From NCBI RefSeq assembly GCF_003334785.1, contig NZ_QOWV01000054.1: 2,877 nt of DNA; one strand, given 5' to 3'. Of the stretch, positions 392-1,308 are shown one piece after another. This DNA is from Escherichia coli. GTDB lineage: Bacteria > Pseudomonadota > Gammaproteobacteria > Enterobacterales > Enterobacteriaceae. The first letter of the stretch is position 1; each line of letters opens with the position of its first letter. The translations under genes and the position numbers were made by a program. Below the pieces are notes generated by a model. That model had not been told where the DNA came from and did no database searches. It worked only from the letters and a program-made list of their open reading frames with translations.

Positions 392-841
392 GATGCGATT
401 GAGAATATGACATCAGGTGGACTAATTTATGCCGTATCTGGTGTACCTGGATTGATTGCTGCAAACAGCATTACTAACAGTGCTTACCAGTTCGGTTATG
501 ATATGGATGCTATTGTTGGCGGAGCTCATAATGGGGCCGCCGATGCAATGAGACATTGTTACTTGATGTGTCGAATGACTAAGACATTTGGATCAACAAT
601 AGCTGACGTGATAGGTAAAAATCATGAGGCGGCAGGGGATAGACAAGGTCAGCCAGCTAAAGAAAGAATCATGGATCTTAAAAATAACACTGTCGGTATT
701 GCTTGTGGCGATTTTTCTGCCAAATGTAGCGATGCATGTATTGAAAAATATAACACTGGGCAACTCTTCGGGTTAGATGGTATAAAAGCAGATAATCCAA
801 TAAAAGCAAAGCAAGGGAGTTCAGATGCTTCAAATTATTAG
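2..841 (+). CDS. rhs: Rhs-family polymorphic toxin, 3' portion (5' end lies outside the window): end of conserved RHS/YD-repeat core followed by variable C-terminal toxin domain
   Basis: The reading frame is open from nt 2 (WLAQCGLTV...), so the GTG at 26 in the ORF track is not a real start. The translation contains the last YD repeat [16 protein letters not shown] (nt 278-325) and the core-terminating DPxGL motif as DPMGL (nt 377-391). Stop codon TAG at 839-841. Nucleotide composition drops from GC-rich to AT-rich around nt 330-360, the classic Rhs core/tip discontinuity. Confidence 0.9.
392..838 (+). other. Variable Rhs C-terminal tip (putative toxin domain, about 149 aa, family unassigned)
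   Basis: It lies immediately after DPMGL and is AT-rich, unlike the core. The sequence is [30 protein letters not shown]...[18 protein letters not shown]...KNHEAAG...[14 protein letters not shown]...; it has a His/Cys-rich segment and none of the nuclease, ADP-ribosyltransferase or HExxH motifs I can recognise by eye. Confidence 0.75.
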
Positions 842-844
842 AGG
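840..844 (+). promoter_or_regulatory. Shine-Dalgarno-like AGAGG for the downstream ORF, overlapping the toxin stop codon
   Basis: AGAGG at 840-844 sits 5 nt upstream of TTG at 850. The arrangement suggests translational coupling of the toxin and the downstream gene. Confidence 0.4.
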
Positions 845-849
845 CAAAC

Positions 850-1308
850 TTGTCATTTTTTTTAATTACCCTTTGTTTATTTGTTGTTTACCTTGGGTTT
901 GATAACAATTCAAATTCTGACATCGTATTTTATGGACATAAAACACCAAAGAGCGTTGAGATATATCTTTCTGAAAAAAATATTATTTATAAAATAATTA
1001 ATGACCAAAAAATTAGTAGAGGGAATGGTCATTTTATAAGTATAATGGTTAATAATTACAGGACGCACTGTGGAGTGGTTGATATAAATCTTAATTTTTT
1101 CAATGATATTCTTTATAGCGTGCGATTAAAAAACATTAGTAAACTGGAGAATATGGAGTTCTGCGCTACAAAACAACGGGTGTATTTTAGTGATAAAAAC
1201 AAGAAGGCTAGTTATAAAATAATTAATTATGGAGACTATTATGATGTTGATTATTATGATAACAATTTGAAAAATGAAGTTTTTGACTGGATTGGTAAAT
1301 GGTCATAA
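850..1308 (+). CDS. Hypothetical protein, candidate cognate immunity protein for the Rhs C-terminal toxin (152 aa if the TTG start is used)
   Basis: ORF 850-1308 lies directly downstream of the toxin tip on the same strand with an 8-nt gap. It is AT-rich like the tip. TTG at 850 is the first possible start in this frame after an upstream stop at 793-795; the first in-frame ATG is at 1045. The assignment is by position only; I recognise no domain in it. Confidence 0.55.
   Translation: MSFFLITLCLFVVYLGFDNNSNSDIVFYGHKTPKSVEIYLSEKNIIYKIINDQKISRGNGHFISIMVNNYRTHCGVVDINLNFFNDILYSVRLKNISKLENMEFCATKQRVYFSDKNKKASYKIINYGDYYDVDYYDNNLKNEVFDWIGKWS

Follow-up and report, generated by a model that had tools for sequence, protein, structure and literature searches.

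The DNA analysed here, a stretch of 2,877 nucleotides that we call the window, matches many complete Escherichia coli genomes at 100% identity and corresponds to the RhsE locus of K-12; NCTC9041 and A14 are the only genomes that match the whole window at 100% in a single piece. It begins with the 3' end of an Rhs core (positions 1-391, + strand), which is recognized by NCBIfam RHS_core up to the last model position (1141-1261 of 1261), by NCBIfam Rhs_assc_core (4.9e-25), and by Pfam RHS (2.6e-17), and which ends at the DPxGL cleavage motif (DPMGL, 377-391). In the same open reading frame (26-841, +), the core gives way to an Rhs C-terminal toxin tip of 149 amino acids plus a TAG stop codon (392-841, +), composed of a hydrophobic stretch and then a helical DUF6973/Min-Wnt/BteO-like domain, with the Pfam DUF6973 span at about 470-709. 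Directly 3' of the tip is a second open reading frame on the same strand, running from a TTG at 850 to 1308 (+, 152 amino acids), in which we distinguish the remainder of a putative signal-anchor helix (850-900), a linker (901-945), and a double-wing alpha/beta domain (946-1305). GC content declines along the way from 0.62 in the Rhs core, through about 0.42 in the tip, to about 0.27 in the second gene.

A preliminary description of this DNA had proposed the 850-1308 frame as a candidate immunity gene, and its account of the layout is accurate: the frame is present, the toxin TAG lies at 839-841, 8 nt before the TTG, the sequence AGAGG (840-844) overlaps that TAG, and there are no in-frame ATG, GTG, or TTG codons between TTG 850 and ATG 1045. 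The frame is open far beyond chance, since the probability of 152 codons without a stop in DNA of 27% GC is 2.9e-7 and that length was reached in 0 of 5000 shuffles. The same description recognized no features in the protein and suggested an uncharacterized immunity family, but the gene is an already-known one, E. coli ydcD (b1457 in K-12), with both an NCBIfam model and a PDB entry. The predicted product scores 207.1 bits (E = 1.5e-61; curated cut-off 65) against the YdcD family model NF050020, residues 3-152 of the TTG product aligning to model positions 9-164 of 164; that the model reaches 8 positions N-terminal of this product fits a truncated N-terminus. Outside a single run of T nucleotides the DNA is identical to K-12 ydcD, and the window protein is identical to K-12 YdcD from residue 14 onward. 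A crystal structure of YdcD residues 26-160 (PDB 8WJ5, titled 'Double-wing domain of E. coli YdcD') has been deposited as 'Uncharacterized protein YdcD'. Other searches returned little: the ORF had no significant Pfam family, PADLOC defence models had no matches to YdcD, the tip, or the small protein YncO encoded downstream, and a YdcD profile searched against PDB sequences recovered YdcD's own structure only, with no match to OmpA or to BtiO, the immunity protein discussed below. We found no functional study in the literature on ydcD, DUF6973, 8WJ5, and rhsE. Most literature matches to 'ydcD' refer to an unrelated Bacillus gene, and the 'RhsE' of an in-silico study of EHEC was judged to be a different module, its candidate downstream immunity ORF being 61 amino acids long.

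Both oddities of the open frame, its TTG start codon and its N-terminus without a charged region, can be traced to one base. The T-run at 856-863 (+) has eight residues in the window (T8) and seven in MG1655 (T7), and the additional T cuts the gene body off from its native start, an ATG at 825-827 (+) located 17 nt inside the toxin ORF, as established from the MG1655 annotation and translation. In the T7 allele, ydcD begins at ATG 825, shares its first 17 nt with the toxin gene, and encodes 160 amino acids with the N-terminus MLQIIRGK, whose charged R6 and K8 precede a hydrophobic helix. In the window, by comparison with K-12, the frame that contains this ATG and the first 12 residues differs from that of the gene body, and the ATG 825 frame stops after 25 codons. 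TTG 850 is merely the first in-frame start codon left after the additional T, and not a native feature, and the charged N-terminal region that the preliminary description found missing is absent because the frameshift removed that part of the protein. PGAP, which gives the gene an extent of 825-1308 (+; NCBIfam YdcD_fam, 1.5e-61), marks ydcD as 'frameshifted' in all four of the T8 genomes that we inspected. The native start also has the strongest Shine-Dalgarno pairing with the 16S 3' end, at -7.9 kcal/mol for AAGGGAG at 813-819 (+), which ranks in the top 3.7% of window positions, compared with -5.8 kcal/mol for TTG 850 and -2.2 kcal/mol for ATG 1045. In a relative 60% identical to YdcD (P0038), the Shine-Dalgarno sequence, the overlapping ATG, and a similar N-terminus (MLQIIKRG) are all kept. 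Among the 2,459 complete E. coli genomes that carry the junction between tip and ydcD, 22 match the T8 junction exactly and 2 match it with one mismatch, while the remaining approximately 2,435 fall in a band of 95-99% identity that contains, among the matches listed, 85-base T7 matches and one 87-base match, probably T9. The T7 allele accounts for about 99% of these genomes and T8 for about 1%. A homopolymer indel of one base can leave behind an odd start codon together with an apparently atypical N-terminus, an oddity that is resolved at once when other genomes are compared.

Given this allele, T8 strains could still make a usable protein if translation began at TTG 850, producing a 152-amino-acid YdcD able to insert into the membrane and protect despite the loss of its basic N-terminus. 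The AGAGG 5 nt upstream of the TTG allows the -5.8 kcal/mol pairing, the product would retain the whole folded domain and, ahead of acidic residues, a hydrophobic stretch of 17 residues (mean Kyte-Doolittle 2.38), and NCTC9041 retains an intact toxin gene beside its T8 allele. We consider such use of the TTG unlikely, however, because the stronger Shine-Dalgarno sequence and the ATG remain 25 nt upstream, and ribosomes starting at ATG 825 would read through the TTG into a 25-amino-acid dead-end peptide, which should hinder initiation there. The AGAGG is merely the R6-G7 codons of native ydcD, and the T8 allele, besides being confined to about 1% of genomes, is found mostly beside decaying Rhs fragments and is called a pseudogene by PGAP. 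Programmed -1 ribosomal frameshifting at the T-run was considered as a rescue and rejected, as a -1 shift from the ATG frame enters the Rhs frame and not the ydcD frame; by reading frames, the ydcD frame is restorable only by a +1 shift or by loss of one U from the transcript.

The window copy of ydcD is either a frameshifted pseudogene or the product of a homopolymer miscall. We found T8 on two haplotypes that differ by about 2.3%, and at two places in the chromosome, namely, the RhsE site (near pptA) and the T6SS-1 site (near yafV), which indicates that the T-run is prone to indels. HB-Coli0 (China) and GF8 (Switzerland), sequenced independently and in different years, share the same T8 locus structure, in which the adjoining Rhs fragment carries both a truncation and a frameshift; this has the look of genuine decay in an orphan cassette. 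The situation differs in NCTC9041, where the frameshifted ydcD is the sole copy and lies behind a full-length VgrG-Rhs pair; a full-length toxin beside a frameshifted ydcD is awkward unless the T is miscalled, the toxin is not fired, or some YdcD is made. It is possible, if somewhat doubtful, that the additional T is a sequencing or assembly error and that the source genome is T7 with ydcD intact from its ATG. NCTC9041 is one of the two genomes matching the whole window in a single piece, and an inactivated sole immunity gene next to a full-length VgrG-Rhs would be surprising. Long-read-only assemblies are prone to homopolymer indels, and many other single-contig frameshift chimeras of the AT-rich ydcD exist in public databases (for example, P0001 and P0051). 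Against an error, T8 is common to independently sequenced strains from different countries and years, so that it looks inherited and real in at least one lineage, and the adjacent Rhs gene is truncated or frameshifted in three of the four T8 genomes inspected, which fits genuine decay. Many YdcD 'variants' of 142-159 amino acids are chimeras of ydcD with an overlapping frame at window positions 881-997, and the number of such frameshift chimeras indicates that homopolymer indels are common in this AT-rich gene.

The hydrophobic N-terminus had been explained in the preliminary description in one of two ways, either by tethering of the protein to the membrane or by a true start at ATG 1045, and the two have fared differently. 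Intact YdcD begins with a short basic segment (R6, K8), which is followed by a hydrophobic helix of 17 residues (residues 2-25 form the helix in the predicted model) and by a compact double-wing alpha/beta domain, and most full-length relatives have a basic N-terminus with a hydrophobic stretch; this conservation is consistent with tethering. A start at ATG 1045 would produce a soluble protein of 87 amino acids and has in its favour that it is the first in-frame ATG in the window, but it is refuted by structure and conservation: the conserved motifs FxG and RGNGxF of the family are encoded 5' of it, the crystallized construct spans residues 26-160, and such a start would halve the single domain of residues ~41-160 that is seen both in the crystal and in the AF2 model. 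Its Shine-Dalgarno pairing is weaker than that at 62% of window positions, and we give this start practically no credence. With regard to how tethering would be achieved, the YdcD N-terminus has no lipobox of the form [LVI][ASTVI][GAS]C, the only cysteine of the hydrophobic region occurring in I-T-L-C with Leu at -1, and no AxA-type signal peptidase I site, there being no small-x-small pattern after the helix (VYLGF/DNN). As neither is present, we infer that the N-terminal helix is an uncleaved signal anchor. Two cysteines, C82 and C113, are invariant in the family alignment, which fits an exported YdcD containing a disulfide.

Several features of the locus connect ydcD to the toxin upstream. 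The upstream gene has an Rhs core ending in PxxxxDPxGL and then a variable DUF6973 tip, and the small downstream gene on the same strand overlaps it by 17 nt in the intact T7 allele, in keeping with the usual toxin-immunity arrangement to which the preliminary description had appealed. Similar overlaps with the toxin gene are seen at other loci (17 nt in L008 and 8 nt in L010). Within E. coli the linkage is near complete, with 2,521 genomes containing the tip segment, 2,462 the body of ydcD, and 2,459 the junction of the two. The pair follows VgrG in NCTC9041 and lies inside an Hcp-VgrG-Rhs (T6SS) cluster in E2863. The association extends to distant homologues: among ten divergent relatives examined (27-60% identical to YdcD), five (P0038, P0025, P0030, P0026, and P0022) lie directly behind tips that are 47-82% identical to the RhsE tip, so that the putative immunity gene accompanies the same tip family, and the tip upstream of P0030 is annotated as Pfam DUF6973. 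One further relative, P0019, sits after a degraded tip remnant. Three are orphans, comprising P0031, which lies within the immunity array of a different Rhs toxin, and P0021 and P0024 from Budvicia, which have no toxin nearby. Immunity genes that diverge faster than their toxins, together with scattered orphans, are the usual pattern for such pairs. Among the closest comparison systems are the Rhs/RhsI pairs, such as Serratia Rhs1-CT/RhsI1 (PDB 6XTD) and Salmonella TreTu/TriTu (PDB 7ZHM), with which the ydcD locus shares a core ending in DPxGL and, beyond a variable tip, a small downstream gene that is AT-rich and overlaps the toxin gene; further similarities are the position behind VgrG or in a T6SS cluster and the occurrence of orphan copies.

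Some observations on individual relatives may be recorded here. The stand-alone YdcD-family gene of Budvicia diplopodorum (P0024; GCA_009800925.1, L006 6001-6498) has no toxin nearby and is flanked by truD on one side and by an eptA-like gene or surE on the other, within the otherwise housekeeping ftsB-ispDF-truD-surE-pcm-nlpD-rpoS region. Directly 3' of the 60%-identical ydcD relative in L008, positions 1003-1949 contain another orphan Rhs fragment, which has a DUF4329 tip and is accompanied by a small downstream ORF of its own; L008 is a stacked array of displaced toxin-immunity cassettes. The YdcD family as a whole is tiny: a set of 1.84 billion representatives contains 36 clusters of it, and many of these are fragments from E. 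coli. Several truncated fragments (P0061, P0067, P0072, and P0075) carry the name 'dCTP deaminase' in NCBI nr, apparently through a mis-annotation that has propagated. Two very long proteins, P0020 (2118 amino acids) and P0029 (3337 amino acids), match YdcD in 31 and 4 short stretches, respectively, and these matches are probably compositional, to N/K/I-rich repeats.

The toxin tip itself provides a second line of argument. It matches Pfam DUF6973 (1.2e-11), and does so over the same model positions (17-100) as BteO, a T6SS effector of Bacteroides fragilis that is toxic only in the periplasm (PMC12541434; PDB 9UU0, 9UU1). The tip residues R54, H55, H78, E79, and D95 are invariant and align to R143, H144, H167, E168, and D191 of BteO, which are essential for its toxicity (PMC12541434). 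In hhalign comparisons with published Min-Wnt domains the tip reaches probabilities of 92-96%, and it has the helical core with its active-site positions (in H2, H3, and H4) as well as the sNxxGR motif that marks the SAA-Wnt clade. By these comparisons, the RhsE tip, an orphan in E. coli K-12, is homologous to BteO and a member of the Min-Wnt Lipocone toxins. A Foldseek search with the tip model, which has moderate confidence (pLDDT 69), did not recover BteO, and a word-indexed search with the tip found near-identical or error-laden E. coli copies only. The essential residues of BteO (RH, HE, D) coincide with the positions predicted to be catalytic in the Min-Wnt Lipocone family, and BteO has a perfect sNxxGR motif (NNQIGR). 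BteO does not appear in the Lipocone main text, and the Lipocone work is not cited in the BteO paper, as far as the accessible portions of both papers extend. Enterobacterial tips have five invariant cysteines (C56, C60, C105, C112, and C116 in tip numbering) that BteO lacks, which suggests disulfide stabilization in the periplasm; the same cysteine pattern also gave spurious weak matches to influenza HA2.

The two lines of work on these toxins differ in the target that they propose. The BteO paper gives OmpA-like peptidoglycan-binding domains as the target and calls the effector 'non-enzymatic' (PMC12541434), whereas the Lipocone analysis predicts that Min-Wnt domains attack lipid-linked envelope precursors (Burroughs, Nicastro and Aravind, eLife 2025; PMC12419801). 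Because toxins of this kind act, or are predicted to act, in the periplasm, there is a rationale for a membrane-anchored YdcD. BtiO, the immunity protein of BteO, carries a signal peptide (PMC12541434), and all of the immunity proteins identified in the Lipocone paper are TM proteins or lipoproteins (PMC12419801). BtiO is a structural mimic of the OmpA C-terminal domain, and YdcD does not have the BtiO fold, although the toxin domains of the two systems are homologous and the residues essential for toxicity are kept. Nor could the fold of YdcD be assigned here to any of the types described for Min-Wnt immunity, namely, BamE-like, jelly-roll, 4-TM, and a small four-cysteine domain (PMC12419801). 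YdcD, DUF6973, PF22322, WP_000939263, RhsE, and P31991 are absent from the text of the Lipocone supplements, to the extent that this text is accessible (PMC12419801). We see it as an evenly balanced possibility that YdcD represents a distinct 'double-wing' immunity class for Min-Wnt/BteO toxins, unrecognized by either paper.

Taken with the position of the gene, these properties suggest that YdcD is probably a membrane-anchored immunity protein for the upstream Rhs toxin. The possibility that YdcD is no immunity protein, and is instead a small membrane protein with no relation to immunity, or else serves the Rhs toxin as a chaperone or other accessory factor, has some observations on its side: functional data on YdcD were not found in the literature, two relatives (P0024 and P0021) occur in contexts unrelated to any toxin, and YdcD has no fold similarity to BtiO. 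We nonetheless find it improbable, since the position of the gene, its overlap with the toxin gene, and its tracking of divergent tips of the same family are the standard signature of cognate immunity genes, and immunity genes typically have orphan copies, such as the one seen here in another Rhs immunity array. The known chaperones of Rhs toxins (EagR type) are cytoplasmic proteins with genes located upstream, whereas YdcD possesses a helix for export or anchoring.

Returning to the immunity reading, which is well supported by genomic context and toxin type, we put the probability at roughly 80% that the ORF is the ydcD of an RhsE-type element and encodes a probable periplasm-facing immunity protein to the Min-Wnt/BteO-like tip, broken in the window by T8. 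The Rhs toxin would be delivered by sibling cells through the T6SS, and its tip, a helical Min-Wnt/DUF6973 toxin, may target OmpA-like peptidoglycan-binding domains or lipid-linked envelope precursors. The YdcD helix, acting as an uncleaved signal anchor, would tether the double-wing domain to the inner membrane so that it faces the periplasm, where the domain could bind and block the toxin. If this is true, K-12 and its relatives hold a tractable toxin-immunity pair with a solved immunity structure, and the RhsE tip and YdcD could be used to decide between sequestration of OmpA-like domains and enzymatic attack on lipid-linked envelope precursors. What is added here is modest: RhsE-CT/YdcD is linked to BteO and to the Min-Wnt Lipocone toxins, a link made in neither source paper, and ydcD, a K-12 gene without an assigned function, gains a probable one.

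Downstream of the toxin and ydcD, the window contains several further features. The yncO gene (1223-1408, - strand; RefSeq annotation) encodes a hydrophobic small protein of 61 amino acids, overlaps the final ~85 nt of ydcD in antisense orientation, and is listed in a table of a small-protein survey (PMC6001520). A terminator-like 14-bp inverted repeat with a T-rich tail (1386-1417, +) lies 78 nt after the ydcD stop codon, where it coincides in part with the 5' end of the oppositely oriented yncO; it is the one terminator-like site found in 600-1520, compared with 0.2 expected from shuffles. The remainder of the window is occupied by two tandem ISAs1 (H-repeat) transposase genes, the first a degenerate pseudogene (1490-2634, +; NCBIfam transpos_ISAs1, 1.7e-87; annotated 'frameshifted; internal stop') and the second the start of ydcC (2720-2877, +; an ISAs1-like ISEc5 transposase by RefSeq annotation), which looks intact and is cut by the window end. 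This tandem pair is the classic H-repeat arrangement of Rhs elements.
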